The notes: generated from the sequence alone by a model not told the origin. A stretch of DNA of 64,000 nucleotides from an uncultured bacterium (GCA_963825135.1 CAWGRW010000009.1:32001-96000); one strand, 5' to 3'. Counted from the stretch's first letter, positions 2,029-50,534 are shown. Numbers and translations: made by a program.

Positions 2029-2394
2029 GTAGGAGCGGCTTCCAGCCGCGATACACACATAGTGTGTTTCTACGATTCTCTTCAGCGCTCTGCATGCTCA
2101 AGCAACCGGAGTCCAACCCGTTCGCCCCTGAGCTCGTCGAAGGGTGATTATTTCCGACATTACAGAATTTGCGTGAAGAAAATCGATTGTTTACAGCGTA
2201 AAGAAATCTTACGCGGGTGGGCGTCCAATTGAAAGATTTTAGCGAGAACATGAGATTTTTAGCAAATTATGTAGTCGGATGATTTTTGCTTCTTTTCATC
2301 AAGGAAAAGAAGGATAAATAAAACAGCCTTTCACCTTTCTTTGTCTTTTCATAAAACCACAGTAAGCGTGTTTCGCGGCGGAAGCCGCTCCTAC
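2029..2394 (+). repeat. composite structured repeat, copy 1 (core 2154-2350), flanked by inverted GTAG-type REPs
   Basis: gtaggagcggcttccagccgcga (2029-2051) and its inverted copy (2373-2394) enclose the ccgacattacagaatttgc...gcaaattatgtagtcgg hairpin and the cttcttttcatcaaggaaaagaag hairpin. Confidence 0.9.
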
Positions 2395-2452
2395 GATAGC
2401 GCAGTTCAGGGGATGCGGAGAATTTACATATGAACACACACCCCTCGCCCCC

Positions 2453-2734
2453 TCAATCCCCCACCGCCTCCATCCCCGGTTCCGGGGCCGCCGTGCAGCA
2501 GTAGAATACGCCGTTTAGAGTGTAGCAGTTCTCGTCGGGGTCGGCGCAGGGCTTGGCGGGGTTGCAGTCGGACAGCGTGCAGACGTCGGATATATCCGGG
2601 TCGTTCGGCGCGAGCGGCAGCTTCTGAACGTCACCCCCGCTTCCGTCGTCGTCCGCGATCGCAAAAGTAACGCCGAGAAATAAAATCAGCGTGATTATAA
2701 GGAAGGCTTTTTTAAGATTACTTATCGCAGGCAT
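2453..2734 (-). CDS. small secreted cysteine-rich protein (93 aa, 6 Cys)
   Basis: AAGGAG RBS before ATG 2734; signal peptide ending TFA-IA; C-x4-C-x5-C-x6-C-x8-CC. Confidence 0.7.
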   Translation of the reverse strand: MPAISNLKKAFLIITLILFLGVTFAIADDDGSGGDVQKLPLAPNDPDISDVCTLSDCNPAKPCADPDENCYTLNGVFYCCTAAPEPGMEAVGD

Positions 2735-2812
2735 GGTCTTTCGCTCCTTTCGGGGATGCGGTCCCGCTCCCCTCGGCAAAATTCTAATGCCTGTCTCAAT
2801 CAAATACAATGA

Positions 2813-3661
2813 TCATTGACTCGCTATGTCTATCTCGTAGTCGATGATCGAGCGAGCGCCCGAGCCCCGGTACGATCCGGTGAGCGGAGCGGCTTCTTCC
2901 GGAATGACACCGGCCGACACCGTGACGTGCTGGTCTGCGACGGCGAGCCCGGAGGACGGGTCGTATCCCCTCCACCCCCCGCCCGGTATGTACACCTCGG
3001 CCCAAGCATGGAGCTGCCTCTCCTCGCCCATCATCTCGTTCTCCCTGTACCCGCTAATGAACCGCGCAGCGATGCCCACGGCCCTGCACGCCTCCATGAA
3101 GAGGACAGTGACGTCCCTGCACGCCCCCCTCTTCGAGCCGAGGGTAATCTCCGCCGGGTAAGGCGGCCCCTCGTGCCTTATGAGCTGCTCGAAGTCGTTG
3201 TATATGCGCTGAGTGAGCGCCAGGATGAAAGGCATGGTCTCGACGCCCGACTCGTATATCACGTCCGTGACGAACTTGTCCACCTGCCCCTCGGGCTCGG
3301 TGTTGCGCATGAAATAGGGCCTCAGCGACGGGACGTAGTATTTAGGGTAGAACACGGGGAGCTTCAGCACCGAAGGCTCCGTGATGATGTAGTCGAACGG
3401 GTTCGTCCGCAGCGTCTCGACCTCCGAGCGGGTCGTGATGGTCAGGTGGTCGTGCTTCCCGGAGAACCAGGCGCACGCGCTGTCGTTCCCCGCGACGTCC
3501 ACAATGTCGGCGACGCCGTCGGGTTTCGGATCGATGTCCATCTCGAAGCTTACGAGACGCTGCGACCCGTCGCTCTTGGGTCTGAGCCTTATCGTCTGCG
3601 GGTCGAGAAACACGCCCTCGGTATATTTGTATCTCGTCGTGTGCCTGATCTTTATATTCAT
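2813..3661 (-). CDS. transglutaminase family protein (bacterial transglutaminase N-domain + core)
   Basis: IRHTTRYKY N-terminus, GACRD catalytic Cys, ARFISGY, HAWAEVY..GW.G.DP. Confidence 0.92.
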   Translation of the reverse strand: MNIKIRHTTRYKYTEGVFLDPQTIRLRPKSDGSQRLVSFEMDIDPKPDGVADIVDVAGNDSACAWFSGKHDHLTITTRSEVETLRTNPFDYIITEPSVLKLPVFYPKYYVPSLRPYFMRNTEPEGQVDKFVTDVIYESGVETMPFILALTQRIYNDFEQLIRHEGPPYPAEITLGSKRGACRDVTVLFMEACRAVGIAARFISGYRENEMMGEERQLHAWAEVYIPGGGWRGYDPSSGLAVADQHVTVSAGVIPEEAAPLTGSYRGSGARSIIDYEIDIASQ

Positions 3662-3681
3662 AGTCTCACTCCCTTCGTATG

Positions 3682-4419
3682 TCATTTCACGCCGTCGCCG
3701 AGCTTCGAGAAAGCCGCCATCACCCAGTCGTGCGGCAGCTCCCTTATCGCCTCTCTTATCCTCTTCTGCCACCACTCGGATATCTGTATCAGCTCCGCCC
3801 TCTCGTACCTGTGCTCCACGATGTCGTACGTATCCGCCCTGTAGAGCACCACGTCGATGGGGAAGTCCACGTCTATCGCGCTCGTCCGGGTCGCGTCGAA
3901 CGCGAGGTAGCCTATCTTGAGCGCGGTCTCCATGTTGAGCTCGTAGGAGAGCGCCCTGTCCATGATGGGCTTCCCGTAGCTCGACTCCCCTATCAGGTAA
4001 TACGGAGTCCCCTGCCCCACCTCCACCCAGTTCCCCTGCGGGTACAGCATGTAGAGCTTATGCTCGGTGTCGTTCTCGAGCTGGCCGCCGATGATGGTCA
4101 GGAGGTCGAAATGGAGCCCCCCCTCTTCGAGCGCCTTCTTGTCCTCTTCCGCGACGCGCCTCACCTGGGCTGCGAACGCGTTCACCGCCTTGTAGAGCTT
4201 GTCGAAGGTGTTGTCGTCCTGCTCCAGCACCTCGCTGAAATACGTGAGCGCCTTGTCCCTCACCGAGCGGAGCCCCGAGGTCATGAGGAAGAGCGAGTGC
4301 CTGCCGTACTGATGGATGGTCACCTTCCTCGCGGTAATGCTCTCGGAGCCCGTCGTTACGAGCGTGTCCGCTATGCCGACGAGACCCTTTCTCACCTTCA
4401 TGCCTACGCAGAACGTCAC
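3682..4419 (-). CDS. proteasome-type protease (Anbu, Ntn-hydrolase)
   Basis: N-terminal Thr nucleophile (M)TFCVG..GLVGIADT; LYPQGNWVE; IGESSYGKPI; operon context. Confidence 0.88.
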   Translation of the reverse strand: MTFCVGMKVRKGLVGIADTLVTTGSESITARKVTIHQYGRHSLFLMTSGLRSVRDKALTYFSEVLEQDDNTFDKLYKAVNAFAAQVRRVAEEDKKALEEGGLHFDLLTIIGGQLENDTEHKLYMLYPQGNWVEVGQGTPYYLIGESSYGKPIMDRALSYELNMETALKIGYLAFDATRTSAIDVDFPIDVVLYRADTYDIVEHRYERAELIQISEWWQKRIREAIRELPHDWVMAAFSKLGDGVK

Positions 4420-5396
4420 TCTTCCATGCCTCCTACCGCATCGGGCGCGGCGGCGGGGCCGAACGCGAAGAACGTATCCCTTATCGAGTCGTCCGCGTTG
4501 TTGATCTCGGTCTGGAACCTGTCCAGGTAATCGTGGAGCCCTTCATTTATGATGTCGTCTATCCTCGCGTAGGTGAGCTCGGCGTGGAGCCTGCCCATGC
4601 GCCTCTCGGCTTCGTTCCGGAACATGCCCGCGGGCGTGCCGGTTATCGAATGGAGCGACGCCTCGGCCATTATCACGCAGTAGAGTATCGCGCGCGGGAA
4701 GTGCCTGTCGAGCAGCAGGAACTGCACGACGGATTCGGGCGTTATCTGCTCGTACTTCCTCCTGTACATGTCGAGCGCGCTCGCCGATTTCAGGAGCGCC
4801 GCCCACTGAATGTTGTCTATCGGCGTGCCCACGTCCTCGGGCTTGGGAAGGAGTATGAAATATTTCACGTCTATGATACGGGACGTCTTGTCGGCCCGCT
4901 CGAGGAGTTTGCCCATGCGGGCGAAGTGCCAGTCCTCGCCGCGGTTCATGGTCGAGTCCGCTATGCCGGCGTAGAGGTGGCTCTCGGTCTTCACCCTCTG
5001 GTAAAAGTCCTGCGGGGTCTCGGCCGCGACGCCGCTCAACGCGGAGTCCCTGACGAAGTAATAGAACTTGTTTATCTGCTCCCACATCTCGGAGGAGATT
5101 ATCTCCCTTATCGACCTCGCGTTCTCCCTCACCATCGTGAGCGTGGAGAGTATGGAGTTAGGGTTCTCCCTGTCGAACGTCAGGAAATCGAGCACGCTCT
5201 CGCGGGTCGCTTCCCCGTAACGCTCCTTGAAAATCTCGAGGTCGCCCGTGGTGCTGACGAGCGGCCCCCACTGCCCCTGCTCGGTCTGCATGTCGAGCAT
5301 GAGGTGGAGGTTCACCTCTATGAACCTCGCCACGTTCTCGGCGCGCTCCATGTATCTCGACATCCAGTATATGGAACTCGCTACCCTGCTAAGCAT
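4416..5396 (-). CDS. alpha-E domain-containing protein
   Basis: MLSRVASSIYWMSRYMERAEN, RENAR..RE.IS.EMWE, LERADKTSR, FPRA motifs. Confidence 0.92.
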   Translation of the reverse strand: MLSRVASSIYWMSRYMERAENVARFIEVNLHLMLDMQTEQGQWGPLVSTTGDLEIFKERYGEATRESVLDFLTFDRENPNSILSTLTMVRENARSIREIISSEMWEQINKFYYFVRDSALSGVAAETPQDFYQRVKTESHLYAGIADSTMNRGEDWHFARMGKLLERADKTSRIIDVKYFILLPKPEDVGTPIDNIQWAALLKSASALDMYRRKYEQITPESVVQFLLLDRHFPRAILYCVIMAEASLHSITGTPAGMFRNEAERRMGRLHAELTYARIDDIINEGLHDYLDRFQTEINNADDSIRDTFFAFGPAAAPDAVGGMEE

Positions 5397-5455
5397 ATCG
5401 GTTAACGCCTGTATTCAAATTTTTAGATTACGGGAGAAAGAGGTCCTCCGCGGTC

Positions 5456-6901: not shown

Positions 6902-7080
6902 CCCTCTAGTCTAACATTTTATTTTTATTCCTCTCATTTTTCTCTCGCCTTCCCCCCCCTTTTTTTAGTTCCCCGGGCCAAGAGAGACAGGGGGGATGGC
7001 CCGGGGATAGGCTAAAGGTGTTTTTAGTTCATCGTTTCCGGAAGCCCGGGATTCTGTCATCCCGCGCCGGCATAAAATAG

Positions 7081-7116
7081 CCGGAGACGGGAACACCCGT
7101 ATATTCCCGTCTCCGG
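7081..7116. terminator. GC-rich hairpin after ORF 7163-7555
   Basis: ccggagacgggaa...ttcccgtctccgg inverted repeat. Confidence 0.45.
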
Positions 7117-7831: not shown

Positions 7832-7884
7832 ATCCGGCCGGAATTTAAGCCGCGGACTTGAGAAATTACTTTACCTGCGCTGAT

Positions 7885-8125
7885 TAATTTCCCCTCCCCC
7901 TTCACAGGAGGGGGGAGGGCCGGGGTGGGGGTGTACCTTTCATCAATCAAATCAGTCATCCTGAATTTATTTCAGGATCTCATCTTTTATCTTTTTCGTC
8001 ATTTCAATGAACTCGATATTATCTCACTAAAAACACGTTCGGGAGCGCAGCAGGGTGGGAGGATGTACCGAATTGAATATTGTCCATCACCCCCATCCTA
8101 ACCTTCCCCCCTCAAGGGGGAAGGA
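7885..8125. repeat. mosaic of palindromic REP-like modules
   Basis: ccctcccccttcacaggagggggggagggccggggtggggg; gtcatcctgaatttatttcaggatct; cttccccctcaagggggaagg-type hairpins. Confidence 0.7.
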
Positions 8126-8146
8126 AGTAATGCCGCCCCTCCCTTA

Positions 8147-10023: not shown

Positions 10024-10291
10024 GAAAAGAAAATATTAACGTATTTCTTCTTTTCCTTGATGAAAAGAAGCAAAAATCATCCGACTACATAATTTGCTAA
10101 AAATCTCATGTACTCGCTAAATCTTCCGATTCTACCCCATCGGAGCAATAGTTTAGCGATGTCCGTGGCTAACTAACGTCGTGCGGATAGGAGAGGGCGT
10201 CCGAATGCGCGCTCGCTTGCATTCGTTCCACGTAAGATTCTTAACGCTCGTACAATCGATTTTCTTAACGCAAATTCTGTAGAGTTGTCGG
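10024..10291 (-). repeat. structured repeat copy 2 (inverted, ~100-bp insertion in apical loop)
   Basis: Reverse complement of the core: ccgactacataatttgctaaaaatctc (10081) ... gattttcttaacgcaaattctgta; small hairpin at 10047-10070. Confidence 0.88.
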
Positions 10292-10434
10292 AAAGCAAAC
10301 TATGTGTGTGATTTAGCTTCTTTGTATCCGACCAAGCCCAGCACATATGGAATGTTATATCTTAAATCCTCATATCCCCTTTTCAAGGGGAAATCATTAC
10401 ATACCTGCTATGCGCGCGGCGGCTCGCCGCCCTC

Positions 10435-10821: not shown

Positions 10822-11103
10822 GGCGGACTTAATCCTTCCCGGATGAATTGTACCAGATTCGCACCGCCCTGCACACACACACACATAGTGTGCTCTTACG
10901 ATTCTACCGAACCTTCTCAGTCCTGCCGGCATATCGTTTGTCCCAGGCGGCGCGCCGACTGTTCGCCCCGTATACCGGCTCCCGCATAGTCCCCCCCTCC
11001 CCCTAAAATCACCCTTTATTTCCAATGATCGTTTGTGTTAGACTTTAATCACGGGCTGTTTGGATTAATTGCCCCGTCCGGGCAATGGGGGGCTGGTAAT
11101 TTT

Positions 11104-13044
11104 ATGAGCGAGACATGTCTGGTCAGCATGCGGGAGATAGACGAAGAGTCCGTGCTCCGGAACCTTATGGAATGCACGGCCTCGGCGACGGGCGAGAGGT
11201 TCTTCTACTCGATCGTTGAAGGTCTCAGCAAGGCGCTCGGCACGGAAGGCGCCTGGTGCACCGTCCTCAACAAGGAAAAACACACGCTGCGCGCTCTCGC
11301 CTTCCTGATGCAGGGCGAGTGGTACGAGGACTACGAGTACGACTTCACCGGCAGCATATGCGAGGAAGTGATACTCGCGGACAAGCTCGTCCACCACCCG
11401 GACAACGTGATGGACATCTATCACGAGAGCGAAAAGCTCAAGTCCTTCAAGGCCGTGAGTTTCATGGGAGCGCCGCTCAAGGACAAGGACGGCGTCACGC
11501 TCGGCTATCTTTCGGTGCTCGATACCCGTCCCATCCCTCAGGAAAAGGGTCTCATAGGCATATTCAACATATTCGCCGACAGGGCCGCCGCCGAGCTCGC
11601 GCGGATACGCGCGGAAGCGACGATAAGAGAGCGCGAGGGGAAGCTCTCGAGCCTGTTCGAGTCCGCGATGGACTCGATTATAGAGCTCGACTCCGGCCTC
11701 GGGATAAACCTCGTCAATTCAGCCGCCGAAAAGCTGTTCGGCTTCGGAGCGGGGAGCCTCGCCGGGAACGACTTCACGCGCTTTCTCTCGAGGGAGAGCC
11801 GCGCAAAGCTCACGGAGATAATCAAGGACCTCCACATGCAGCCCGAGGAGAAAAGGTACCTCTGGATACCGGGCGGCCTCGAAGCAGTCACGTCCGGCGG
11901 GGTACGCTTCTCGGCGGAGGCGACCATATCCACATACGAAGCCGACGGCGGAGTCTTCTACACGCTCATACTCCGGAACGTGAACGAGCGCATCGAGGCC
12001 ACGAAGCGCATCCGCTCGCTCATGGACGCGGCGAAATATCTCGAGGAGGAAATAAAGGAGCTCGGGAACTTCGACGACATCATGGGATCGAGCGCCCCGA
12101 TACTCGATGTCATGCGGGACGTAAGTCAGGTGGCCGGGACGGACAGCACGGTGCTCATCCTGGGCGAGACCGGCACGGGAAAGGAAGTGATAGCGAGGGC
12201 GATACATAAATCGAGCAGGAGGGGCGAGAGGCCGCTCATAAAGGTCAACTGCGCCGCGATCCCGGCGCACCTGATAGAGAGCGAGTTCTTCGGGCACGAG
12301 GAGGGCGCGTTCACGGGCGCGACACGGAAGCGCGACGGCAGGTTCACGCTCGCCGACGGCGGCACCATATTCCTCGACGAGGTGGGCGAGCTCACGCTCG
12401 ACCTCCAGGCGAAGCTCCTGCGCGTGCTCCAGGAAGGGGAGTTCGAGCCCGTCGGCAGCTCGAGCACGAAGAAGGTGGACGTCCGGGTGCTCGCCGCCAC
12501 CAACCGCGACCTCAAAAAAAGCGTCGAGAAAGGCGAATTCCGCGAGGACCTCTACTACAGACTGAACGTATTCCCGATAAAGCTCCCGCCGCTCCGCGAA
12601 AGGGGGGACGACATCGCGCTATTCGCCAGGGCGTTCGCCGAGAAATTCGCCCGTAGGATTGGGCGGGAGTTCCACCCGCTGACGGACGACTGCATAAGGC
12701 TGTTGAAATCATACTCCTGGCCCGGAAACGTGAGGGAGCTACAGAACGTGATCGAGAGGGCGGTCATTACGTCCCAGGGAAAGCGCCTCGAGATTGCACG
12801 CGTATTCCCGGAAACTTCCGCGCGCCTCATCGACAAAGTCCCTTCCGCCGAAAAGCCCGCCGGGTCGATATTGACGATGGAAGAGATGATGAGCTTCGAG
12901 CGTGAGAACATACACAGGGCCCTGGCCGCGGCCTGCGGCAAGATATACGGCGAAGACGGCGCGGCCGCACTCCTGGGTATGAACCCCTCCACGCTCCGCT
13001 CCCGCATCAAGGCCCTGGGGATAAGAAAGGTAGACAACGACTGA
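11104..13044 (+). CDS. sigma54-dependent activator (GAF-PAS-AAA+-HTH, FhlA-like)
   Basis: GETGTGKE, ESEFFGHEEGAFTGA, FLDEVGE, WPGNVRELQN, C-terminal HTH AA.LLGMNPSTLRSR. Confidence 0.95.
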   Translation: MSETCLVSMREIDEESVLRNLMECTASATGERFFYSIVEGLSKALGTEGAWCTVLNKEKHTLRALAFLMQGEWYEDYEYDFTGSICEEVILADKLVHHPDNVMDIYHESEKLKSFKAVSFMGAPLKDKDGVTLGYLSVLDTRPIPQEKGLIGIFNIFADRAAAELARIRAEATIREREGKLSSLFESAMDSIIELDSGLGINLVNSAAEKLFGFGAGSLAGNDFTRFLSRESRAKLTEIIKDLHMQPEEKRYLWIPGGLEAVTSGGVRFSAEATISTYEADGGVFYTLILRNVNERIEATKRIRSLMDAAKYLEEEIKELGNFDDIMGSSAPILDVMRDVSQVAGTDSTVLILGETGTGKEVIARAIHKSSRRGERPLIKVNCAAIPAHLIESEFFGHEEGAFTGATRKRDGRFTLADGGTIFLDEVGELTLDLQAKLLRVLQEGEFEPVGSSSTKKVDVRVLAATNRDLKKSVEKGEFREDLYYRLNVFPIKLPPLRERGDDIALFARAFAEKFARRIGREFHPLTDDCIRLLKSYSWPGNVRELQNVIERAVITSQGKRLEIARVFPETSARLIDKVPSAEKPAGSILTMEEMMSFERENIHRALAAACGKIYGEDGAAALLGMNPSTLRSRIKALGIRKVDND

Positions 13045-13056: not shown

Positions 13057-13120
13057 AATCTCACGCTTATTCACTGTGAAATCTCACGCACCGCTTAATC
13101 TCACGATGTGCATATCACAC
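13057..13120 (+). promoter_or_regulatory. putative enhancer (UAS) with AATCTCACG repeats
   Basis: Three AATCTCACG copies including quasi-palindrome GTGAAATCTCAC; the same block recurs at 15556-15600. Confidence 0.7.
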
Positions 13121-14899: not shown

Positions 14900-15061
14900 C
14901 TATTTTACCGTCATTTCTTTTCCTGTCATTCCCGAGTGCTTAATACGTGTGTGTCTTTTCATCAAGGAAAAGAAGAAAGAATATTCGCCTTTTGCTTAGT
15001 CTTTACGCAATCGGCATATCCGTGTGCGACTATAAAAAAACCCGGAGCGCAGAACCCATAA

Positions 15062-15328: not shown

Positions 15329-15555
15329 TCTTAACCTCCCTCGTGCGAGCTTTTAACTGATATTATAGTCTGCATATTTGATGCCATCGAGCTATCCGCC
15401 GCAACTCTCACCGATAATTCATTTTCATCTATATGCACCTAAGCGTAATCGATGAGACTGTCCGCTTCCATGACAATTTTCCGAATGGTATTGCCAGCCC
15501 CTGCCATAATGTTGATACTTGGTAGCCAAAACGTTATATTTCACCGATAAGCGCC

Positions 15556-15669
15556 GTGAAATCTCACGTTCCGCTAAATCTCACGGTGTGCGATATTGCA
15601 CGACAATACTCGTAATCATCCGTCTTCACAGAATAATCTAATGTTCTATTTAACTGGCACGGTTCGTGC
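15556..15669 (+). promoter_or_regulatory. UAS plus sigma54 promoter (duplicate of 13076-13188)
   Basis: GTGAAATCTCACG..CCGCTAAATCTCACG at 15556; TGGCACGGTTCGTGC at 15655-15669; spacing 99 bp vs 98 bp in the first copy. Confidence 0.75.
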
Positions 15670-16776: not shown

Positions 16777-17084
16777 ACATCGAACACGATAAATATCCCA
16801 TCACCCATACATGAAATTCCCTCCCCTCGTCACGGGGGGAGGGCGCGGGTGGGGGGCACCTTTCTTTTCCCGTCATTGCGAGGAATGGTTCTGAGCAAGC
16901 GTAAGAACCGGTCGCTAATGGCTGATTGCATATGAGGATGTTATCTCTGCGCCACACCGTACTAAACCGGCGACCGCGGCAATCTCCTCTTTTTTCCTTT
17001 CCCCCGACATTACAGAAAAGGGCCCGTCACAGCCCCCTAAATCCCCTCTTCCCCTCCGTACTTTATCCATTACACTATTACCTT

Positions 17085-18690: not shown

Positions 18691-19160
18691 CCGACATTAC
18701 AGAATTTGCGGCGGGCACACACAATGTGTGCTCATATACGATCCTCCCGTAACTCCTCGGCCATCGCCAGGGAATGAGCCCAACCCGTTCGTGCTGAGCT
18801 AGTCGAAGGGTGATTATTTCCGACATTACAGAATTTGCGTGAAGAAAATCGCGTGTTTAAGCGTAAAGAAATCTTTGAGCAGTCCAATTGAAAGATTTTA
18901 GCTTAAACATAAGATTTTTAGCACAATTCTGTAGTCGGATGATTTTTGCTTCTTTTCATCAAGGAAAAGAAGGATAAATAAAACAGCCTTTCACCTTTCT
19001 TTGTCTTTTCGAAAGACCACACTATGTGTGTGGTTTTTTGTATCAAAATAATATTCTCCGATGGATGACGGAGATGCGGGAGTTTATCACCCCCACCTAT
19101 ATCCTCCCCCCTCAAGGGGGAGGAAAATAATACGGATCGCGGCTGGAAGCCGCTCCTGCA
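18691..19160 (+). repeat. composite structured repeat, copy 3 (core 18820-19010)
   Basis: 5' fragment at 18691, cacacaatgtgtg, aacccgttcgtgctgagctagtcgaaggg, full core, cacactatgtgtg, REP cgcggctggaagccgctcctgc. Confidence 0.9.
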
Positions 19161-20196: not shown

Positions 20197-23100
20197 ATGG
20201 AAGTTAAATCAGCTCAATACGGCCTCTTCAGCTTTTTAAGCCGCAAGGGTAAGGCTGCCCCCACGGCCGAGGACTGGCACATAAAGGGGAACGAGCTCAC
20301 GGTGCACCGTGATTTCCCGGGGGCCCTCGCCGCGTACGAGAAAGCCATAGGGCAGAGGCCCGATTACTTCTCGGCGTGGATCGGGAAAGGGAACGTGCTC
20401 GCGTCGCTCGACAGGCACAACGAGGCGCTCGCCGCATACGACAAGGCTGGGAAGCTCAAGCCCGAGCACCTGAAGGCCGTCGAGGGCAACGGATTCGTCC
20501 CCTATTACATGCGCAAGCGCGCGGAGTACGTCGAAACGTCGGCGAAGTCCCGTATGTTCGAGTTCGATTTCCACATGGCGTGGGTCGGCAGGGGCGTCGT
20601 GCTTACCGCGCTCGGCAGGCACGGGGACGCGGCCCTGGCTTATGAAGAGGCGGTGAAAGTCGATCCCGGATCCCACGCGGCCCGGATAGGCAGGGCGGAC
20701 GCTCTCTACGCCGTGGGCGCGCACGGCGAGGCGGCGGACGCTTACGACCGCGCTAACGCGCTCGTCCCCGACTTCCACCATTCGTGGAGGAGGAAAGGGA
20801 AATCCCTCTCAGAGCTCGGCAACTATTACGCCGCCATAGAGGCCTTCGACCGCGCCATCGGCATTAAACCCGACTACGAAAACGACTGGTACAGCAGGGG
20901 GTGCGCCCTCGCCGGTCTCGGCAAATACGCGGACGCCATAGAGGACTTCGACAGGGCGCTCGGTCTCAACCCCGGTTACGCGGACGCTATGTTCCGGAAA
21001 GCCCTCGCCCTCGCCGCCCTCGGCAGAAACGAGGACGCGCTAAAAGCGTTCGACGAGACCGTAAGATCAAAACCCGGACGCACGAACGCCTACATAGAAA
21101 AGGGCAGGACGCTCGCCCGCCTCTCGAGATTCGACGAGGCATTCGACGCATACGACAAGGCTATAAAGAGCAACCCGTACTCGCACCTCGCGTGGATAGG
21201 CAAGGGGGACGCGCTCGCCGGGGTCGGGAAATTCGAAGACGCCGCGAACGCCTTCGAGCTGGCACTGAAATTAAATCCGGACGATCCCGTCCCGTACGCG
21301 AGGAAAGGGGACGCGCTCTCCGGCATGAGAGAATATGAAGAAGCGGTCAAATCATACGACCGGGCGGAGGCGCTCGCGCCCGACGATGCGGACATACTCA
21401 CGCGGAAGGGAGACGCACTCACGGGTCTCGGAAACCTCGCCGGGGCTCTGACGATATTCGAGAGGGCCATCGCCGTCAGGCCCGGACACCCGGGCGCGTG
21501 GAGGGGCGAAGGGGACGCGCTCGCAAGGCAGGGGAAACACGGGGACGCGCTCGTGTCGTACCGCAGGGCAATCGAGCTCGACCGCGCCGAATACCGCGCG
21601 TGGACCGGCACGGGAGACGCGCTTCGGGCGATGGGGAATTATAGGGACGCCGTAACGGCCTACGACCGCGCGATCGAGGCCAACCCCGGATACGAGCCCG
21701 CCAGGCGCGGGAGAGGGGACGCATTACTAAAATCGGGACACTTCACCGAGGCGCTCGGTTCACTCGACGACGCGGTCGGGCTCGATCCCGCGTCCGAAGG
21801 GGCGTGGCGGGGCAGAGCCGAAGCGCTCGCGGAGCTCGGCGAACACGGCGCGGCCGCCGAGGCATACTCCCGCGCTTCGGGGATAAACCCCGGAAACTCG
21901 GATCATCTCCTCGGCATGGGCGGAGCGCTCAGCTCGGCCGGGAGGTACGGCGAGGCGGCGGGGGCCTTCGACAGGGCGCTCGCCATAGACCCCGCTAACG
22001 CCGCGGCGTGGAGCGGCAGGGGGATCGCGCTCGCATATTCCGGTAAATACGCAGAGGCTTCCGAATCGTTCGACAGGTCGCTCGCGCTCGATCCCGGAGA
22101 CGCCGCCTCCTGGAACGGAAAGGGCGGTGCGCTATTCGGCATGAACAAATACGGGGAGTCGCTCGCGGCGTACGATAAAGCCATAGAGCTCAGTCCCGCG
22201 AACGCGGCCGCCTGGAACAACAAGGCGCACGCGCTGTTCGGGCTCGGGGATTACAGGGCGGCCGAGGCGGCCTTCGTAAGGGCTTCTCACATCGAGGGAT
22301 GGTGGAGCGAGCCGCGCATTGGGAAGGCGAGCATGTACCTCGCTCTCGGCAATACGGCGAACGCATACGGGGCCGCCGAAGAGGCGCTTTCAGAGCTCGG
22401 CAGAAACGCGGAGCTCCTAGCGGCGAGAGGCTTCTCGGAGCTTTCCATGCGGGAGTACGGGAGCGCGGTCGAGTCCTTCCGCGGGGCGTCCGAATCGGAC
22501 CCCGGCAACCCCGCGCTTCTCCTGTGGCGGGCATACGCCTCGTACCTCTCTGCCGAAAAGAATTCCGGCTCCGGCGCGAGCATATACAGGGACAATATAG
22601 CGTCCGTGCTCGAAACGCTCGACAAGGCGCACCGGATGATCGCGCCCGAAGAGAAAGACGGGACGCTTCCTCCCTGGATCCCTCAGGAAAAGAAGAAGCC
22701 CGACGAAAAGGAGCTCGGCATAATGTCGGACATCCTGTATTTCAAAGCGCGCTGCTATTTCAAGCTCGGGGATTACGACAAAACCGTCAAAGCGCTTAAC
22801 GAATGCGCGCGCCTCGGCGCCGGGGACGAGAGAGACGTAAAGCGCGTCCTTAAAATCATATGGAAGAATTATTCGGCGCCTTCTCTCTGGAGGTGGTGGC
22901 TCGCCTCGCCGGTGAACCCATGGCCGAAGAGGATTTTATTCTTCTCCGTATCCCTCCTCGCCTCAGGCCTCCTGCTGGCCCATCCGCTCCTGGTCGAGCT
23001 GATCAAGCCTTACGCCTTAAACACGGCCGTATATATCTCCCTCGTCGCCGTCCTCATAGGGATACTCTTCATGCCGCTCACGGAGAGGACCAGGGAGACG

Positions 23101-23205
23101 GAGTACGAATTCAGCCTCGCGCCCGATCTGAGGAGAGACCCCGTACTCACTCCCGTCACCCTCGACGGCCACATCAAACGGATACGCCGAAAACTCCCGG
23201 CTTAA
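20197..23205 (+). CDS. large tetratricopeptide repeat protein with C-terminal membrane anchor
   Basis: Many 34-aa repeats W..KG.AL..LG.Y.EA..AYD.A..L.P; two hydrophobic helices near the C-terminus. Confidence 0.92.
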   Translation: MEVKSAQYGLFSFLSRKGKAAPTAEDWHIKGNELTVHRDFPGALAAYEKAIGQRPDYFSAWIGKGNVLASLDRHNEALAAYDKAGKLKPEHLKAVEGNGFVPYYMRKRAEYVETSAKSRMFEFDFHMAWVGRGVVLTALGRHGDAALAYEEAVKVDPGSHAARIGRADALYAVGAHGEAADAYDRANALVPDFHHSWRRKGKSLSELGNYYAAIEAFDRAIGIKPDYENDWYSRGCALAGLGKYADAIEDFDRALGLNPGYADAMFRKALALAALGRNEDALKAFDETVRSKPGRTNAYIEKGRTLARLSRFDEAFDAYDKAIKSNPYSHLAWIGKGDALAGVGKFEDAANAFELALKLNPDDPVPYARKGDALSGMREYEEAVKSYDRAEALAPDDADILTRKGDALTGLGNLAGALTIFERAIAVRPGHPGAWRGEGDALARQGKHGDALVSYRRAIELDRAEYRAWTGTGDALRAMGNYRDAVTAYDRAIEANPGYEPARRGRGDALLKSGHFTEALGSLDDAVGLDPASEGAWRGRAEALAELGEHGAAAEAYSRASGINPGNSDHLLGMGGALSSAGRYGEAAGAFDRALAIDPANAAAWSGRGIALAYSGKYAEASESFDRSLALDPGDAASWNGKGGALFGMNKYGESLAAYDKAIELSPANAAAWNNKAHALFGLGDYRAAEAAFVRASHIEGWWSEPRIGKASMYLALGNTANAYGAAEEALSELGRNAELLAARGFSELSMREYGSAVESFRGASESDPGNPALLLWRAYASYLSAEKNSGSGASIYRDNIASVLETLDKAHRMIAPEEKDGTLPPWIPQEKKKPDEKELGIMSDILYFKARCYFKLGDYDKTVKALNECARLGAGDERDVKRVLKIIWKNYSAPSLWRWWLASPVNPWPKRILFFSVSLLASGLLLAHPLLVELIKPYALNTAVYISLVAVLIGILFMPLTERTRETEYEFSLAPDLRRDPVLTPVTLDGHIKRIRRKLPA

Positions 23206-23513
23206 ATTCCTTATATTATTTCTCTTTAATCCGTCATCCTGAACTACGTTTCCGAGCGTGCGCAAGAACCGGTCGCCATTGCCAATATAGCACTTCCTCG
23301 ATTAACCCCGGCTACATACTTATTAAAATTCCAGTTGTGAGAAATCTATCTTTACCCGTTCTTCCCGGGCTCGCCCGTCCCGAGCCCGTCGAAGGGTCTG
23401 CATTATTCTTCCCCTCACTGCGAGTGCAGCTAACGAAGTTAGCGGGACGCGGCAATCCCCTTCCCTCTTCTTTCCCTAATATTGCGAGCCGCGCAAGAGG
23501 CGAAGCAATAGTG

Positions 23514-23667
23514 GGGACATTACGGGATTTGCGTTAAGAAAATCGCCGTGTTTAAGCGTGAAAATCTTTCAGCTTCCCATTCGAAAGATTTTAGCTTCAA
23601 CACAAGATTTTTAGCACAATCCCGTAGTCCCGAAAGATTTTTGCTACTTTTGATCTCCCAAAAGTAG
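23514..23667 (+). repeat. structured repeat copy 4 (divergent, compensatory changes)
   Basis: gggacattacgggatttgc...gcacaatcccgtagtccc and ctacttttg-atctcc-caaaagtag. Confidence 0.88.
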
Positions 23668-24005
23668 AGAGAACTCCTGCCATTCGATAATCGCGCGAGC
23701 ATCATGCGCCCGCCCCTATCGCCGCCCCGTTCACCCCGAGCGCACACGTGCATGCAGTCGACGGATCGAAGGACGCATGCAGTAGCGGCTTAGAGCCGCG
23801 ATAATGCGCAATTTCAACTCCCGTCCGTAAATTTCCCGATATCCGTGAACCTTTTTTCTCAATCACCCCGTATTAATAGACGTTAATGGACATTGCTGCG
23901 GGTATTTCGCCGGAATCGTTACATGAAAATATTTCGCGTCCCTGAATCCATCCTCGTTGCAATAACAACTAAATAGACAAATACATTTTTTAAGGAGGCA
24001 GTAAA

Positions 24006-31289: not shown

Positions 31290-31712
31290 ACACACACAAT
31301 GCGTGCTCATATACGATCCTTCCGAAACTCCTACGCTCAAACCAGCGACGTAGCCAAACCCGTTCGTGCTGAGCTGGTCGAAGGGTGTCACTTCACCCGC
31401 GGGCATACGATCTCTAACATCCCCCTCAGCTCAATCCAACCCGTTCACCCTGAGCTTGTCGAAGGGTGATTATTCCCGACATTACAGAATTTGCGTATAG
31501 AAAATCGATTGTACGAGCGTTAAAAATCTTACGGGGGCCGGGGCGGGATCGGAAGATTTAGCGAGTGCATGAGATTTTTAGCACAATTCTGTAGTCGGAT
31601 GATTTTTGCTTCTTTTCATCAAGGAAAAGAAGGATAAAAAAAATATCCTTTCACCTTTCTTTGTCTTTTCATAAAACACACTGTCTGTTTCGCGGCTGGA
31701 AGCCGCTCCTGC
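31290..31712 (+). repeat. composite structured repeat, copy 5 (core 31476-31670)
   Basis: cacacacaatgcgtg, two gttc..ctgagc..gtcgaaggg modules, full core, terminal REP tcgcggctggaagccgctcctgc. Confidence 0.9.
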
Positions 31713-42710: not shown

Positions 42711-42739
42711 GATTGGACTAATACAACAACGACGATAAG

Positions 42740-45761: not shown

Positions 45762-45781
45762 GGGCAATCAACATCCTCTCT

Positions 45782-45829
45782 AACCTGAGCGGGCGGATTA
45801 TTCACTTTACTAATCCGCCCGCTCAGGTT
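45782..45829. terminator. long hairpin
   Basis: aacctgagcgggcggatta...taatccgcccgctcaggtt followed by T-rich sequence. Confidence 0.6.
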
Positions 45830-45849
45830 TTAATATTTTAAGGTATACG

Positions 45850-46461: not shown

Positions 46462-46888
46462 AAACGCATTCCTGAAGTATCTGGAGCTATACGGCGGGGA
46501 CCTCGGCAGGTGGCCCTCGGGCCTCGGGGAAGAGGCGGAGGCCGCGTGCGCGGAATCCCCCGAGCTGAGAGAGGCGCTCGAAAATGAGAGACGGTTCGAG
46601 GAGGCCCTCATGGAGAGGGCGTTCGAAGAGCCCTCGCCCGGACTCGAAGCCAGGATAATAAGCGCGGCCGCCGGGGTCAAGCGGCCCGAGGCCCGCGGAA
46701 GTTCGATGCCCGGTCTCCTGGGCGCCCTGTTCTCGGCCATACCGCTCCCGCGCCCGGCGATAGCGCTCCCGCTGCTGCTCGTCATGGGGATGGCCGCGGG
46801 TTACCTCTATGCCAATTACGCGGAGCAGGACACGGACAATTCGCAGTACGCCGAAGCGCTCTATTTCGGGGAGGGATACTATGAGTAA
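46454..46888 (+). CDS. putative anti-sigma factor (membrane anchored)
   Basis: Overlaps the sigma stop; YG.DL.RWP motif; one TM helix. Confidence 0.75.
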   Translation: MDRNAFLKYLELYGGDLGRWPSGLGEEAEAACAESPELREALENERRFEEALMERAFEEPSPGLEARIISAAAGVKRPEARGSSMPGLLGALFSAIPLPRPAIALPLLLVMGMAAGYLYANYAEQDTDNSQYAEALYFGEGYYE

Positions 46889-47423
46889 GGGTCTTAAAAT
46901 TTTTCTGACTGTATCCGTGCTCCTGAACGTGCTCCTCGTCGGGATAGTGATAGGGACGTTCTCGCACACATTCGTCGGACGCATGGAGAGGGGGAAGCGG
47001 GCGCTCATGCTCCTGAAAGACCTGCCTCCCGAGAAACGCGAGATGGTCCTCGAAACCATGAAAGACATGAGAAAGCATTCCCGTGAAACGAAGAAGAAGA
47101 TCTGGAAAATGAGGGACGAGATCATAGACGTATTTGCCGCCCCCGAGTTCGACGCCGGGCTTTTCGACCAAAAAGTCGCCGAGTTGCACGCGCTCATGGG
47201 CGAGATCACGGGCGAAATGGCCGACGAGACCAAAAAGATCGCCGCTGAGCTCAATTACGAAGAGAGAAAAGCCATAGCGGAGATGATAAGGAGAGGGCCG
47301 GGGCCGCCTTTCCCCCGCTTCCTCATGGAAGGGTTCCCGGGCCCGGACGGTCCCCCGCCGCACCACCCCGGCATGGATGACTGGCACGACGGGCCGGGAG
47401 GAGAGCCGCGTGAAGAGAATTAA
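46881..47423 (+). CDS. periplasmic heavy metal sensor-like protein
   Basis: SVLLNVLLVG..G, helical, PEFD, L..EER. Confidence 0.75.
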   Translation: MSKGLKIFLTVSVLLNVLLVGIVIGTFSHTFVGRMERGKRALMLLKDLPPEKREMVLETMKDMRKHSRETKKKIWKMRDEIIDVFAAPEFDAGLFDQKVAELHALMGEITGEMADETKKIAAELNYEERKAIAEMIRRGPGPPFPRFLMEGFPGPDGPPPHHPGMDDWHDGPGGEPREEN

Positions 47424-47904
47424 GAGGGTCCGCAAGGTAATTCCGGCCGGCGACTACCCCAAAGTTTTAACGCCCCCGCCGGTTATAGTCCTGATCGTTA
47501 TCGCCGCGGGCAGCGCCGTCGGACTGATACAGCCTCTCCGCTTCATAGACGGCCCCGCGAGATACATAGCGGGCGGGGCGCTCGTGCTGGTCACGGCGGT
47601 CATCACGTTAACCGCATACTTTAAAATGAGGGGCGCGGGTACGAACGTCGATGTGAGGAAGCCCGCAACGACTGTGGTCACGGACGGTATTTACTCATAC
47701 ACGAGGAACCCCATGTACGTATCCATGGTCGTTTTTCTCGTCGCCATGTCGGTGCTCCTCAACAACCTCTGGATAATGATCCTCATTCCGGCCTTTATAT
47801 TTATATTGCGGAAGGGAGTGATAGAGAGGGAAGAGCTCTACCTCGAAGGAAAGTTCGGAGACGAATACAGGGAGTACAAAAACCGCGTCCGCAGATGGCT
47901 CTAG
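47410..47904 (+). CDS. isoprenylcysteine carboxyl methyltransferase (Ste14/PEMT) family protein
   Basis: VTDGIYSYTRNPMY, EE.YL..KFG.EY..YK..V.RWL. Confidence 0.88.
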   Translation: MKRIKRVRKVIPAGDYPKVLTPPPVIVLIVIAAGSAVGLIQPLRFIDGPARYIAGGALVLVTAVITLTAYFKMRGAGTNVDVRKPATTVVTDGIYSYTRNPMYVSMVVFLVAMSVLLNNLWIMILIPAFIFILRKGVIEREELYLEGKFGDEYREYKNRVRRWL

Positions 47905-48370
47905 CACACAATGTGTGTATATACGAATCCTTCGTAACTCCTCTGCCACGCCATGGAATTTGCCCATCACGTTCACCCTGAGCTTGCCGAAGGGTATCAC
48001 TTCGCCCGCGGGCATAGCTATCTCTAACATCCGCCTCTGCTCAATCAACTCCCGAAGCCAAACCCGTTCGTGCTGAGCGGCACACGAAGTGTGCCGTCGA
48101 AGCACGTTACCGACATTACAGAATTTGCGTTAAGAAAATCGCGTGTTTAAGCGTAAAGAAATCTTTGAGCAGTCCAATTGAAAGATTTTAGCTTAAACAC
48201 AAGATTTTTAGCGTAATTCTGTAGTCGGATGATTTTTGCTTCTTTTCATCAAGGAAAAGAAGGATAAAAAAACAGTCTTTCACCTTATCTTTTGTCTTTT
48301 CGAAAGACCACACTACGTGTGTTCATCAAGGAAAAGAAGGAATTAAATTAGCCTTTGTTTTTGTCTTTCC
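47905..48370 (+). repeat. composite structured repeat, copy 6 (core 48110-48301)
   Basis: Starts right after TAG with cacacaatgtgtg; near-identical to copies 3 and 5. Confidence 0.9.
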
Positions 48371-48679
48371 GAAAAGCGGAAAGCAATGCATTGCTTAAAA
48401 TCCTCCCTAACCCTCCTTTACGAAATGAGGGAATTAAAATCTCTACGGCAATCCCGCCATTACTTTTAATACCGCCATCCCGGAAAATACGGAATACAGG
48501 CCGGATCCCGCATGGAAAATCGAACGTTTCCCGGACAGACCCCGAACGCGTCCCGAATGTACACCAAAAACAAGGCCCTGACGCACCCGTAGCAATCCCG
48601 TGCTCTCGCCCTAACCCACTGTGAAGACGTGAGATTAGTGTTATCCGGCAGTATTTTTCCCGCTTAATAAAATACCATA

Positions 48680-48708
48680 TTGACATCATTACGTAATGAT
48701 GTAATAAT
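48680..48708 (+). promoter_or_regulatory. sigma70 promoter with a perfect 20-bp palindromic operator
   Basis: TTGACA (48680) -17 nt- AATAAT (48703); ACATCATTACGTAATGATGT at 48683-48702. Confidence 0.75.
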
Positions 48709-48714
48709 GAGTGC

Positions 48715-48936
48715 ATGACAGCGGCAACCATACAGCAGCGGGCAAATCCGGAGAAGATGCACAGAGGTTCGCTATACATCCCGGCGATCCTCTACGAGAG
48801 ACTGAGGCTCTTCTCGTTCGTCTCCAGAACAAGCCAGTCCAAGATAATCGAGGAGGCCATCGCCGAGTACCTCGAGAACCGCATGACCGGCAAGGAGTTC
48901 GATAACGTGCTGATGTACAGGAAGGAAGAACAATAA
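48715..48936 (+). CDS. small ribbon-helix-helix-type DNA-binding protein
   Basis: SLYIP..LYERL......SQSKIIEEAI.EYL pattern. Confidence 0.7.
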   Translation: MTAATIQQRANPEKMHRGSLYIPAILYERLRLFSFVSRTSQSKIIEEAIAEYLENRMTGKEFDNVLMYRKEEQ

Positions 48937-48964
48937 GGCGTCGCAAAAAATACCTAGCGAGAGG

Positions 48965-49396
48965 ATGGGTGAGATGAAAGTGAGAGAAGTGATAAAGTTT
49001 CTGGTGGAAAACAACGGATGGTATCTCGTGAGGATTTGCGGAAGTCACCGTCAGTTCAAGCTCAGAAGCAAGAAGTCGAGGCTCACTATAAACTGCAAGA
49101 TGGATAAGGAGCTTCCGGAAGGCGCTCTCTACTACTCACTCAAGCACTGTTTCGATTCGCAGGAAGTAATACATAAAGAACACTATGAAATTACAATAGA
49201 GCAGTCCAATGACTGTTATTCGGCTTACTGCCCGGACCTCCCCGGCTGCGTCGCCGTAGGGGACACGCTCGAAGAGACGAAAGAGCTCATGCTCGACTCC
49301 GTACGCCTTCACCTGGAAGGGCTCAAGCAGGACGGCGTACTGGTATCGGAACCGGGTAATACATCGGCATTTTTCGAAATCAGGCAAGCCTCCTGA
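48965..49396 (+). CDS. HicA-HicB fusion ORF (type II toxin-antitoxin domains in one frame)
   Basis: N half KVREVIK.L..NGW.L.R..GSH.QF (HicA); C half Y.I.IEQ...YSAYCPDLPGCVA.GDT.EE (HicB). Confidence 0.8.
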   Translation: MGEMKVREVIKFLVENNGWYLVRICGSHRQFKLRSKKSRLTINCKMDKELPEGALYYSLKHCFDSQEVIHKEHYEITIEQSNDCYSAYCPDLPGCVAVGDTLEETKELMLDSVRLHLEGLKQDGVLVSEPGNTSAFFEIRQAS

Positions 49397-49559
49397 TGTC
49401 GGCAGCTTAACCGAATTAAACGGGCTGCCGACATCAGGGCCGTAAAACCCTGACAAGAGAAGCAGGCATTACGGCATCAATAACGACATAACCCCATACC
49501 CCCCCTTAGAGCGTCAGGAATCGGTTCTCACGAGAACAAGATTCCTGGCGCTCCCTTTT

Positions 49560-49820
49560 TGCACACAATGTGTGATTCTATGATCCTTCCCTACTTCTTC
49601 CGCCCACCTATTTTGCATTTCGAACGAACGTGAGAAATCTATCTTTTTCTTCCCGACATTACAGAATTTGCGTCAAGAAAATCGAGTGTCGAAGCGTATA
49701 AAAATCTTTCAGCTTTCTAATTGAAAGATTTTAGCTTCAACATTTGCCGTTCCAAAAAACACACTATGTGTGTCTTTTCATCAAGGAAAAGAAGAAAACC
49801 ATCTTTGTCTTGTCTTTGTC
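49560..49820 (+). repeat. structured repeat copy 7 (core from 49653; outer 3' arm missing)
   Basis: ccgacattacagaatttgc..tgtcgaagc..gcttcaaca then cacactatgtgtg and the tcttttcatcaaggaaaaga hairpin. Confidence 0.85.
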
Positions 49821-49928
49821 ATCCCGAAGGGCGCCGTCCCCCTCCGTTTCGTTGACACCGCACCCCCCTTTGGTTACTTTATATGTTCTCAATAAAGAAG
49901 CGATGTTACTTCATCGGATATGCAACGA

Positions 49929-50022
49929 GGAGAGGTGGCCGAGTGGTCGAAGGCGCTCGCCTGCTAAGCGAGTAAGGGGGCATAAACCTCCTTCGAGGGT
50001 TCAAATCCCTCCCTCTCCGCCA
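49929..50022 (+). tRNA. tRNA-Ser(GCT)
   Basis: GGAGAGG/CCTCTCC acceptor stem, anticodon arm ctcgc-ctGCTaa-gcgag, long variable arm, GGTTCAAATCC, encoded CCA. Confidence 0.95.
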
Positions 50023-50534
50023 CACACACATAGTGTGTTTTTACGATTCCTCCCTAACCATCGCTCATTACCCACAATTGAGGCCCACCCGTTCACTCTG
50101 GTTTGTCGAAGCATGTATTTACATTCTTCCCGAATTACAGAACTTGCGGCGGGTGAGCCCCGCACGTTTAAATCTCCCTCCCTCCTTTTTCAAAGTGAGG
50201 GAGGATATGAGTCGGGGGTCAGCATTTCATTCCAATCAATCGAGAATCTTCTCTTCCCCCGACATTACAGAATTTGCGTCAAGAAAATCGATTGTACGAG
50301 CGTTAAGAATCTTCCACGGGGTGGGGTTGAATTGGAAGATTTAGCGAGTACATGAGATTTTTAGCAAATTATGTAGAGTCTTTTCGGAAACCACACTACG
50401 TGTGTGATTTTTGCTTCTTTTCATCAAGGAAAAGAAGGATAAGAAGCAGCCTTTCTCCCTTCTTTGTCTTTTCATAGCAGTGCGTGGCAATCCATCACTA
50501 ATAGGTGTGTCACGACTGGAAGCTCGCTCCTACA
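50023..50534 (+). repeat. composite structured repeat, copy 8 (core 50259-50473)
   Basis: Begins at the tRNA CCA with cacacacatagtgtg; full core; terminal degenerate REP ending gctcctac. Confidence 0.88.

Follow-up and report, generated by a model that had tools for sequence, protein, structure and literature searches.

Modular, hairpin-forming interspersed repeats in a narrow clade of Candidatus Dadabacteria

A repeat unit of about 200 nt, most of which folds into a long imperfect hairpin, occurs eight times in a 64,000-nt stretch of DNA from an uncultured bacterium (GCA_963825135.1, CAWGRW010000009.1:32001-96000; hereafter the window, by which we mean the whole stretch). Is it a functional RNA present in many copies, or a DNA repeat that spreads between genes? 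An initial annotation, made from the sequence alone, proposed either a multicopy non-coding RNA (ncRNA) or 3' untranslated region (3'-UTR) element, or the substrate of a trans-acting mobiliser. The latter fits our results better and the former less well, because the orientation of the copies ignores the direction of the genes and tracks strand composition, and because copies are gained, lost and swapped between close species. In its behaviour the repeat comes closer to a new kind of small DNA repeat, parasitic or domesticated, than to a gene that encodes a functional RNA. On balance, we lean towards regarding the units as lineage-specific, non-coding, modular and hairpin-forming interspersed repeats of a narrow clade of Candidatus Dadabacteria, which resemble REPINs and BIMEs and would spread to further intergenic sites when a trans-acting enzyme processes their hairpin as single-stranded DNA (ssDNA).

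Copies, anatomy and fold of the repeat

The eight cores of the initial annotation were all recovered, at the places it had given. A degenerate 24-nt pattern of the 5' arm matches the window at 2162, 10257 (minus strand), 18828, 23522, 31484, 48118, 49661 and 50267, and has no match in 100 dinucleotide-preserving shuffles of it (eight real copies against 0 expected). Built from 109 relatives, a covariance model recovers these eight copies and no others (E-values from 7.6e-40 to 1.3e-14), the other 14 of its 22 matches in the window being reverse-strand echoes of palindromes or fragments of the small hairpin described below. A repeat scan of the window and a BLASTN search of one copy against it recover the same eight copies plus fragments.

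The relatives come from one pattern scan of a collection of species-representative genomes, and the 136 stretches retrieved are the matches listed, hence a lower bound. At least 144 unique pattern matches were found in seven related metagenome-assembled genomes (MAGs), with at least 89, 23, 12, 10, 8, 1 and 1 matches per MAG; both the copy numbers and the taxonomic range are lower bounds because an exact 24-nt match was required. The MAGs among the matches listed are all titled Candidatus Dadabacteria, Thermodesulfobacteriota or 'uncultured delta proteobacterium', and the NCBI taxonomy places Dadabacteria as a class within Thermodesulfobacteriota. Syntenic genes are 87-96% identical among the MAGs, and 81-92% identical between the window and one of them, the CAVWAZ MAG. 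Since its syntenic genes match those of these MAGs so closely, the window comes, judging by sequence similarity, from a further member of the same Dadabacteria clade.

We derived the anatomy of the unit from 137 copies anchored at the 5' end and 105 anchored at the small hairpin. It comprises, in order, about 12 nt of pyrimidines, a 20-nt leader (CCGACATTACAGAATTTGCG), the long imperfect hairpin, ATGATTTTTG, a small hairpin of 9 bp (D), GGAT followed by an A-run, and about 25 nt of pyrimidines. The 3' foot of the long hairpin is an inverted copy of the leader, and sequence conservation ends at both edges of the unit in the aligned anchored copies. Units are about 200-215 nt long, with a main hairpin of about 120 nt, or of about 215 nt in the copies with a branched apical domain. 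A short apical loop is the rule among the 139 unique copies, with 110 cases; another 19 carry an apical insert of about 100 nt, and 10 lack the 3' arm. Their interiors sort into the subtypes T1, T2 and T4 and a GGGAC/GTCCC variant, and every subtype is present together with the others in each genome sampled. The 5' and 3' halves are of concordant subtype in 108 copies and discordant in 2, the others being unclassified. Several derived rearrangements are shared between copies: a replaced 3' foot is common to at least 14 copies at different loci, the long apical domain to 20 copies, and a nested insert in the small hairpin to several. The subtypes T1 and T2 did not arise from one another by flip/flop inversion, T2 not being the reverse complement of T1 on inspection. 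A coding role was likewise rejected on inspection: a short minus-strand open reading frame (ORF) can be read through the small hairpin, but its frame is not kept because the length of the A-run differs between copies.

The window illustrates most of this diversity. The plus-strand unit at 2143..2350 (model match 2152-2331, 177 bits) has the complete series, from a short pyrimidine stretch, leader, main hairpin and small hairpin D to the A-run and the pyrimidine tail. Full plus-strand units of subtype T1 lie at 18818..19011 (185 bits, the top-scoring copy of the window) and at 48108..48302 (183.5 bits, followed by a second, solo D hairpin at 48317-48374), and one of subtype T2 at 31474..31671 (175 bits). 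The plus-strand unit at 23512..23686 (144.9 bits) belongs to the GGGAC/GTCCC subfamily and lacks the pyrimidine tail; three of its stems have compensatory changes, and the double substitutions are exactly those already described for it (GGGAC/GTCCC, ACGGGA/TCCCGT and CTACTTTTG/CAAAAGTAG). The same variant is found at two places in another MAG (loci L078 and L092), where the flanks have no long match to the window. Two further cores are real but had been described as simpler than they are. The minus-strand unit at 10047..10295 (model matches 10070-10293, 90 bits, and 10048-10069) is not a plain hairpin, since its apical loop carries a structured insert, the branched apical domain of about 100 nt that defines the long form; its leader has a small insertion (CCGACAACTCTACAG). 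The plus-strand T2 unit at 50257..50478 (165.7 bits), downstream of tRNA-Ser, does not have an intact basal stem, the 3' half of which has been replaced by a CACACTACGTGTG module through a rearrangement common to many copies. Upstream of tRNA-Ser lies a plus-strand copy that lacks the 3' arm (49651..49813, 73 bits).

The fold is real, because both the pairing and the number of pairs changed on both sides exceed those of shuffled and slid controls. The copy at 18818-19010 folds at -57.9 kcal/mol as RNA (z -6.3), its opposite strand at -48.0 (z -4.2), and as DNA the value is -34.9 (z -6.7). For covariation we used 109 of the 128 unique copies, excluding 19 long-loop copies. RNAalifold, the check suggested with the initial annotation, gave part of the structure on the MAFFT alignment and missed the rest, so the reference fold was mapped onto that alignment instead. 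Standard pairs form in 91.6% of the alignment cells, and this falls to 47-55% when partners are slid by 1-3 columns. The compensatory changes noticed earlier in a few copies extend to the family: both sides change at 15 of 53 pairs (199 cells), and none of 500 shuffles reaches the observed values. In the long form, the apical domain has a helix of its own with two compensatory positions (in 7 and 6 of the 19 sequences), together with a closing helix.

It had also been proposed that selection acts on the fold rather than on the sequence, and this was not supported as stated. Compensatory differences are found between a few subfamilies, each of which moves as a block, and the independent compensatory events are therefore few. 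Within subfamilies, stems are no less variable than bulges and linkers (diversity of 0.083 vs 0.068 in T1 and of 0.052 vs 0.034 in T2), the sole well-sampled polymorphic stem pair shows no association between its sides (Fisher p 0.73), and we found no sign of selection for pairing in either T1 or T2. One stem position is most commonly a G.A mismatch (72 of 109 copies). RNA parameters make the plus strand the more stable one in 102 of 109 copies, and DNA parameters do so in 99 of 109. The main cause is a single G.U that 101 of the 109 copies retain; where such pairs are sporadic, G.U outnumber A.C by only 47 to 32. Compensatory changes can stem from a need for a DNA hairpin or from correction of one arm by the other, and so they do not by themselves show an RNA function.

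Sequence, moreover, is kept where there is nothing to pair with. Among 202 unique leaders, 143 run into the long hairpin, 51 into a short G+C-rich hairpin or a CACACAATGTGTG palindrome, and 8 into something else, so the leader keeps its sequence at 51 places that have no 3' partner for it. Conversely, a leader lies upstream (within 300 nt) of 95 of 95 3' feet. The short palindromes that follow solo leaders include GCGGGTGAGCACCCGC and GCACACAATGTGTGC, and the arms of the long hairpin are not self-complementary on inspection. The conservation of the 5' arm, and of the leader that the search pattern fixed, is partly ascertained because the search demanded an exact 24-nt match; the 51 solo occurrences are independent of the pattern.

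Genomic context, orientation and turnover

Genes around 75 copies with flanks were called with an ORF picker based on GC3 (G+C content at third codon positions). Copies favour regions downstream of genes: 28 lie between convergent genes and 7 between divergent ones, 19 between genes both co-oriented with the element (+E+), 17 between genes both opposite to it (-E-), and 4 contexts are incomplete. The distance to the upstream gene ranges from 66 to more than 1000 nt. Since +E+ and -E- contexts number 19 and 17, orientation is unrelated to transcription. It follows strand composition. The GC3 skew on the strand of the element has a mean of -0.124 and is negative at 56 of 67 loci, for co-oriented (-0.148) and opposite genes (-0.073) alike. 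In a wider tally it is negative at 58 of 70 loci, which are not independent since some share contigs, and its mean is negative in each of five genomes. The raw skew is negative at 47 of the 53 loci with plus-strand copies and positive at 11 of the 17 with minus-strand copies, and none of the 70 loci holds copies in both orientations. Leading strands are usually G-rich; by this rule, with the direction of replication taken from composition, the plus strand of the element, being C-rich, would be the lagging strand.

In the one copy scanned, matches to a sigma-70 promoter and an intrinsic terminator were at chance level only. In one copy, a CCACAC..GTGTGG module with a T-run resembles a terminator; the arrangement is not general. 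A sigma-54 promoter in the leader was ruled out by inspection, because the spacing leaves no GG at -24.

Occupancy differs between close species. Among four orthologous intergenic regions compared between the window and the CAVWAZ MAG, two are filled in both and two in CAVWAZ only. In CAVWAZ a unit follows a sigma-54 activator gene, at a place (window ~13045) that is empty of units in the window. The space between two methyltransferase genes holds a full composite in CAVWAZ and only a truncated leader (17005) in the window; this truncated leader is kept at the same edge in CAVWAZ (L058), with the full unit lying upstream of it. Both flanks of tRNA-Ser carry a copy in both genomes. There, in the CAVWAZ locus L044, the orthologue of the 49651 copy has decayed differently and the orthologue of the 50257 copy, a T2 in the window, is a T1.

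Interior subtypes also change in place. In six orthologous comparisons with a copy on both sides, they differ in four (window/L044, L033/L056, L051/L061 and L030/L063) and agree in two, L020/L048 and L001/L014. The units of L020/L048 are about 98% identical to each other, the adjoining genes are 88-90% identical and the remaining intergenic DNA cannot be aligned. Taken together, the shared derived rearrangements and the swaps of subtype suggest that variant masters are copied and that copies often exchange sequence. The repeats may also be targets: in L010 (1057-1332, minus strand) a 91-aa fragment of an rve_3 integrase core follows a break in the 3' arm of a long-form copy, into which a DDE-type insertion sequence (IS) seems to have inserted.

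Known systems and competing readings

The whole window was searched against Rfam 15 at gathering thresholds, which returned two tRNAs only; with two copies in E-value mode the best score was 25.4 bits against a threshold of 70. No Rfam family thus matches the repeat. BLASTN of a short copy against plasmids and of a long copy against phages gave no match. Judging from titles and the beginnings of abstracts among the papers listed, we found no published account of repeats in Dadabacteria genomes, and a literature search for a 17-nt string of the leader found no occurrence. The earlier impression that the family had not been described therefore stands.

The best fit is that of a new clade-specific, non-autonomous mosaic repeat, whose closest analogues would be REPINs and BIMEs. 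REPINs are described, in the accessible part of PMC3116915, as having two conserved inverted ends and a variable spacer, with compensatory changes being common. The Dadabacteria element is similarly extragenic and present in many copies, has no transposase gene inside, and consists of a leader and its inverted copy that flank a variable spacer (T1, T2, T4 or the long form) in which compensatory changes keep the hairpin. Singlet forms (here a leader with a short palindrome), mosaic clusters, coexisting subfamilies and persistence at orthologous sites are further traits in common, as far as the available portions of PMC3116915 and PMC8266576 describe them. There are also differences. What defines a REP sequence is the tetranucleotide GT[AG]G, placed 0-2 nt from the hairpin foot on its 5' side (PMC8266576 and PMC6006769, in the parts accessible), whereas the 5' foot of our element is CCGAC after a pyrimidine tract, without GT[AG]G, and its only GTAG lies inside the 3' arm (..TCTGTAGTCGG). 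Each REP unit is a short palindrome; here the arms of the long hairpin do not look palindromic on inspection, and the 51 solo leaders are followed by short palindromes. In further contrast to REPINs, the two sides of the unit are unlike, a pyrimidine tract preceding the hairpin and the small hairpin, A-run and pyrimidine tail following it, and a branched apical domain of about 100 nt occurs in some copies. REPs go with a cognate single-copy RAYT gene flanked by the repeats, and no RAYT gene was found in 83 ORFs of the window and 233 ORFs of the other loci, about 325 kb in all.

The ends of IS200/IS605 elements and of their miniature derivatives, which transpose as single strands by 'peel and paste', offer a second comparison. 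They share with our repeat a conserved linear segment 5' of a hairpin and an orientation tied to the replication strand, as judged here from strand composition (58/70 loci), and recognition through the hairpin is plausible. Such elements insert 3' of a fixed tetra- or pentanucleotide without duplicating the target; the feet of our hairpin show no evident duplication, and the three junctions compared with CAVWAZ are obscured by other modules. According to the available part of PMC6006769, the lagging-strand template is the substrate of IS200/IS605 elements. In contrast to them, the Dadabacteria repeat has one long hairpin rather than two subterminal ones, no tnpA or tnpB was found in the ORFs scanned, and its better-folding strand is the C-rich one, not the presumed lagging-strand template. 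The polarity of the element may be opposite to that reported for IS608.

Other long hairpins are more remote. The ERIC/IRU sequences and the bcr repeats of the Bacillus cereus group are long imperfect intergenic palindromes, reported in both orientations within transcripts. Like the Dadabacteria family, they include palindromes of about 120 nt, larger variants with an insert at a fixed internal site and a fold kept by compensatory changes, and their function, mobile element or RNA element, is debated; unlike them, the present family has a shared leader module and a strand-composition bias, and its sequence and host are unrelated. Integron attC sites, as in Vibrio, are imperfect hairpins of about 120 nt with conserved bulge positions, variable apical structures and strand-specific folding, and their arrays keep a uniform orientation over tens of kilobases, as do the copies studied here. 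Core sites of attC have the consensus RYYYAAC and GTTRRRY. We rejected this identity: the feet are CCGAC/GTCGG, there are no conserved core sites, the only GTT-like site (GCGTTAAG) varies among copies (TTAAG, TCAAG, TGAAG, TATAG), and Pfam found no integron integrase in the ORFs of the window or of the other loci. A cassette array was also rejected, as the intervening genes run in both directions and are syntenic chromosomal genes rather than cassettes.

What would a REPIN-like repeat of this kind require? High copy number, subfamilies with shared derived rearrangements, differences in occupancy and subtype between species, the preference for downstream regions and an orientation that follows strand composition are observed directly. 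The unit would be copied to new intergenic sites, and its copies would often recombine with one another. The probable substrate is the folded single strand of a repeat, on which a trans-acting enzyme would work: copying would pass through an ssDNA stage in which the hairpin folds, and the leader and hairpin would be recognised by an enzyme encoded elsewhere in the genome. The leading candidate is an HUH Y1 transposase of RAYT/IS200-IS605 type, because transposases of this kind rely on a hairpin with a linear motif on its 5' side and are tied to replication (PMC6006769, in the part available). Compensatory changes would then reflect the need for a hairpin or arm-to-arm correction, and not an RNA function.

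Several results weigh against this reading. Pfam found no Y1/HUH or other transposase in the 83 ORFs of the window (61 + 22) and no transposase but the rve_3 fragment of L010 in the 233 ORFs of the other loci (136 + 97), and NCBIfam revealed no mobiliser among the 21 unannotated ORFs of the window. No clean junction between an empty and a filled site was recovered, the three junctions compared between the window and CAVWAZ being messy and obscured by other modules, nor was any target-site signature at the junctions compared. There is no GT[AG]G at the foot of the hairpin, as there is in canonical REPs, its branched and covarying apical domain is more elaborate than a transposase hairpin needs, and its better-folding plus strand lies on the C-rich strand, which by the usual rule is not the template on which IS200/IS605 elements act. 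Finally, the loci behind the orientation bias are partly linked, and within the window the GC3 signal is weak, though bulk GC skew declines from its start to its end and all but one of its eight copies are plus-strand copies.

A multicopy structured RNA, either an independent small RNA or a cis element such as a 3'-end hairpin that protects the mRNA or is cut by a double-strand-specific RNase, is an unlikely, though not negligible, alternative. It would account for the strength of the fold (z -6.3), the more stable plus strand (102/109) with its retained G.U and the excess of G.U over A.C, the preference for positions downstream of genes (28 convergent vs 7 divergent) and the one orthologous copy conserved better than its neighbouring genes, and the compensatory changes of the branched apical domain are suggestive of it. 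As the unit is nearly palindromic and would fold in transcripts of both directions, an RNA element could act in either orientation. Such an element nevertheless leaves a good deal aside: orientation shows no preference relative to flanking genes (19 vs 17) and tracks strand composition instead, promoter and terminator signals do not exceed chance in the copy scanned, Rfam has no match, pairing shows no sign of selection within subfamilies, the leader is conserved even where unpaired, the 3' arm is lost in 10 of 139 copies, and the upstream gene may be 66 or more than 1000 nt away. With a probability close to that of an RNA, and thus also doubtful, the repeats could be more than selfish DNA and form a hitherto unknown class of polar structured ssDNA or RNA elements, with a three-way-junction apical domain and a fixed orientation to replication, homogenised over hundreds of intergenic sites and serving a host or host-parasite function. 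They might, for example, be a regulatory RNA in many copies, or the substrate or guide of an undescribed enzyme that is specific for hairpins and belongs to none of the known HUH families.

We regard two further explanations as improbable, and equally so. The repeat might be a classical miniature inverted-repeat transposable element (MITE), that is, a deletion derivative of a DDE-type IS whose hairpin arms are terminal inverted repeats (TIRs) bound as double-stranded DNA by a transposase encoded elsewhere. Its inverted-repeat architecture, high copy number, intergenic location and subfamilies suit a MITE, and DDE elements are present in these genomes (the rve_3 fragment of L010). The outer ends of the whole unit are fuzzy, and duplication was assessed at the feet of the hairpin: inverted arms are present, but the feet have no direct repeat, with ..cTtCC upstream and ATGATTTTTG downstream in nearly all copies. 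Nor would a MITE be expected to have a small hairpin and a tail on one side only, and a bias in orientation with strand composition is unexpected for a symmetric element bound at its TIRs. In the GGGAC subfamily the two arms have changed in concert, and one genome harbours this subfamily alongside the main type, so a MITE would need a second, matching transposase. The other explanation is a structural DNA element maintained by the host, with a polarity relative to replication and homogenised by gene conversion rather than by transposition; it would, for instance, be bound by a nucleoid protein, a topoisomerase or a recombination protein, or act as an initiation signal on single strands. The orientation with strand composition in five of the five genomes tested, the persistence of copies at orthologous sites across species that are 87-96% identical, the swaps of interiors with position kept, and the location of the stably folding strand on the C-rich strand would all follow. 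We know of no such system with a 200-nt mosaic unit, however, nor of a protein partner; closely related species differ in which sites are filled, many copies are decayed or truncated, and divergent regions are avoided, as they are by selfish repeats.

These repeats matter in practice because Dadabacteria are uncultured, and the family and its companion modules make up most of many intergenic regions in the clade, where they turn over faster than the adjoining genes. They bear on the assembly, binning and annotation of Dadabacteria genomes and offer markers for strain typing. They also provide a natural case for the persistence of hairpin repeats, with an architecture like that of REPINs and features that REPINs lack: no GTAG foot, a leader used by several types of hairpin, a branched apical domain and a strong bias of orientation with strand composition. 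Identification of the mobiliser, if it succeeds, may reveal a repeat and an enzyme that form a new kind of pair.

Solo and companion modules and other features of the window

Parts of the unit also occur on their own, and the fragments that had been annotated around the cores turn out to be of this kind. The presumed 5'-only fragments belong to the leader module, which recurs separately, truncated or with a different short hairpin. All three are on the plus strand: a truncated solo leader (CGACATTACAGAA) that follows a pyrimidine tract (17005..17017), a leader with the short CACACAATGTGTG palindrome in place of the long hairpin (18692..18731), which together with the unit at 18818 forms a composite and is its upstream half, and a diverged leader followed by a short G+C-rich hairpin of S1 type (50129..50163), S1 following the leader at many loci. 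The presumed 3'-only fragments are not 3' arms of the main hairpin: each is a small hairpin D that stands alone with its tail. They lie on the plus strand at 14953..15010 (weak model match 14921-14994) and 48317..48374, and belong to the repeat family D9.

Units usually sit among other repeat modules, which mostly share the orientation of the core (38:0, 47:4 and 29:0). The ratio of 47:4 is that of the CACACA..TGTGTG modules (families D6, D8 and D12), which often precede the unit. At 18716..18812 (plus strand) they consist of a CACACA..TGTGTG palindrome with TACGAT, followed by CCAACCCGTTCG..CTGAGCTnGTCGAAGGGTG, and relatives of them are found at 2053-2150, 31291-31468 and 47904-48016. A canonical-looking hairpin ending in CTAC is the exception among modules, with 25:14 relative to the core. 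These short G+C-rich hairpins (CGCGGCnGGAAGCCGC), followed by TCCTAC or TCCTGC, occur at 2374-2394, 31691-31712 and many loci; read on the opposite strand, those of the TCCTAC type are GTAG plus a hairpin and resemble canonical REPs. A small repeat family, D19, is built around a CCCCCCTCAAGGGGG hairpin and lies at 8086-8131, 19086-19131 and, inverted, 7883-7933. Another dispersed repeat (..TTCTGAGCAAGCGnAAGAACnGGTCGC..) occurs at 16876-16929, 23237-23290 and 53952-54005, its copy at 16876 being nested within a repeat of the GTCATTGCGAG...GCGGCAATCTC type. ORFs of 100-200 aa that have no Pfam match cross the repeat units, at 1946-2251 (minus strand), 49744-50355 (plus), 50033-50344 (plus) and similar places; in automatic annotation they would be false gene calls.

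The window has other features of interest. Two similar 54-nt stretches (13058-13111 and 15538-15591) have three spaced copies of AATCTCACG each and may be binding sites of a regulator; the former comes right after the sigma-54 activator gene (11035-13044), and the orthologous place in CAVWAZ has conserved it. Four copies of a repeat of 75-88 nt (54324-54742) begin inside the 3' end of tRNA-Arg (54262-54338), beside a stretch of low G+C content (0.40-0.46) at 52-54 kb that encodes a papain-like protease. The region may be an integration hotspot or bear the scars of an island. One ORF combines a HicA toxin domain with a HicB-like antitoxin domain, both in the window (48965-49396) and in the CAVWAZ MAG (L044, 2541-3023), and may be a fusion or two genes merged by the ORF call. 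Finally, thirteen repeats with a period of 102 nt (20373-22262) lie inside the gene of a 1002-aa TPR protein (20197-23205) and are ordinary TPR units.

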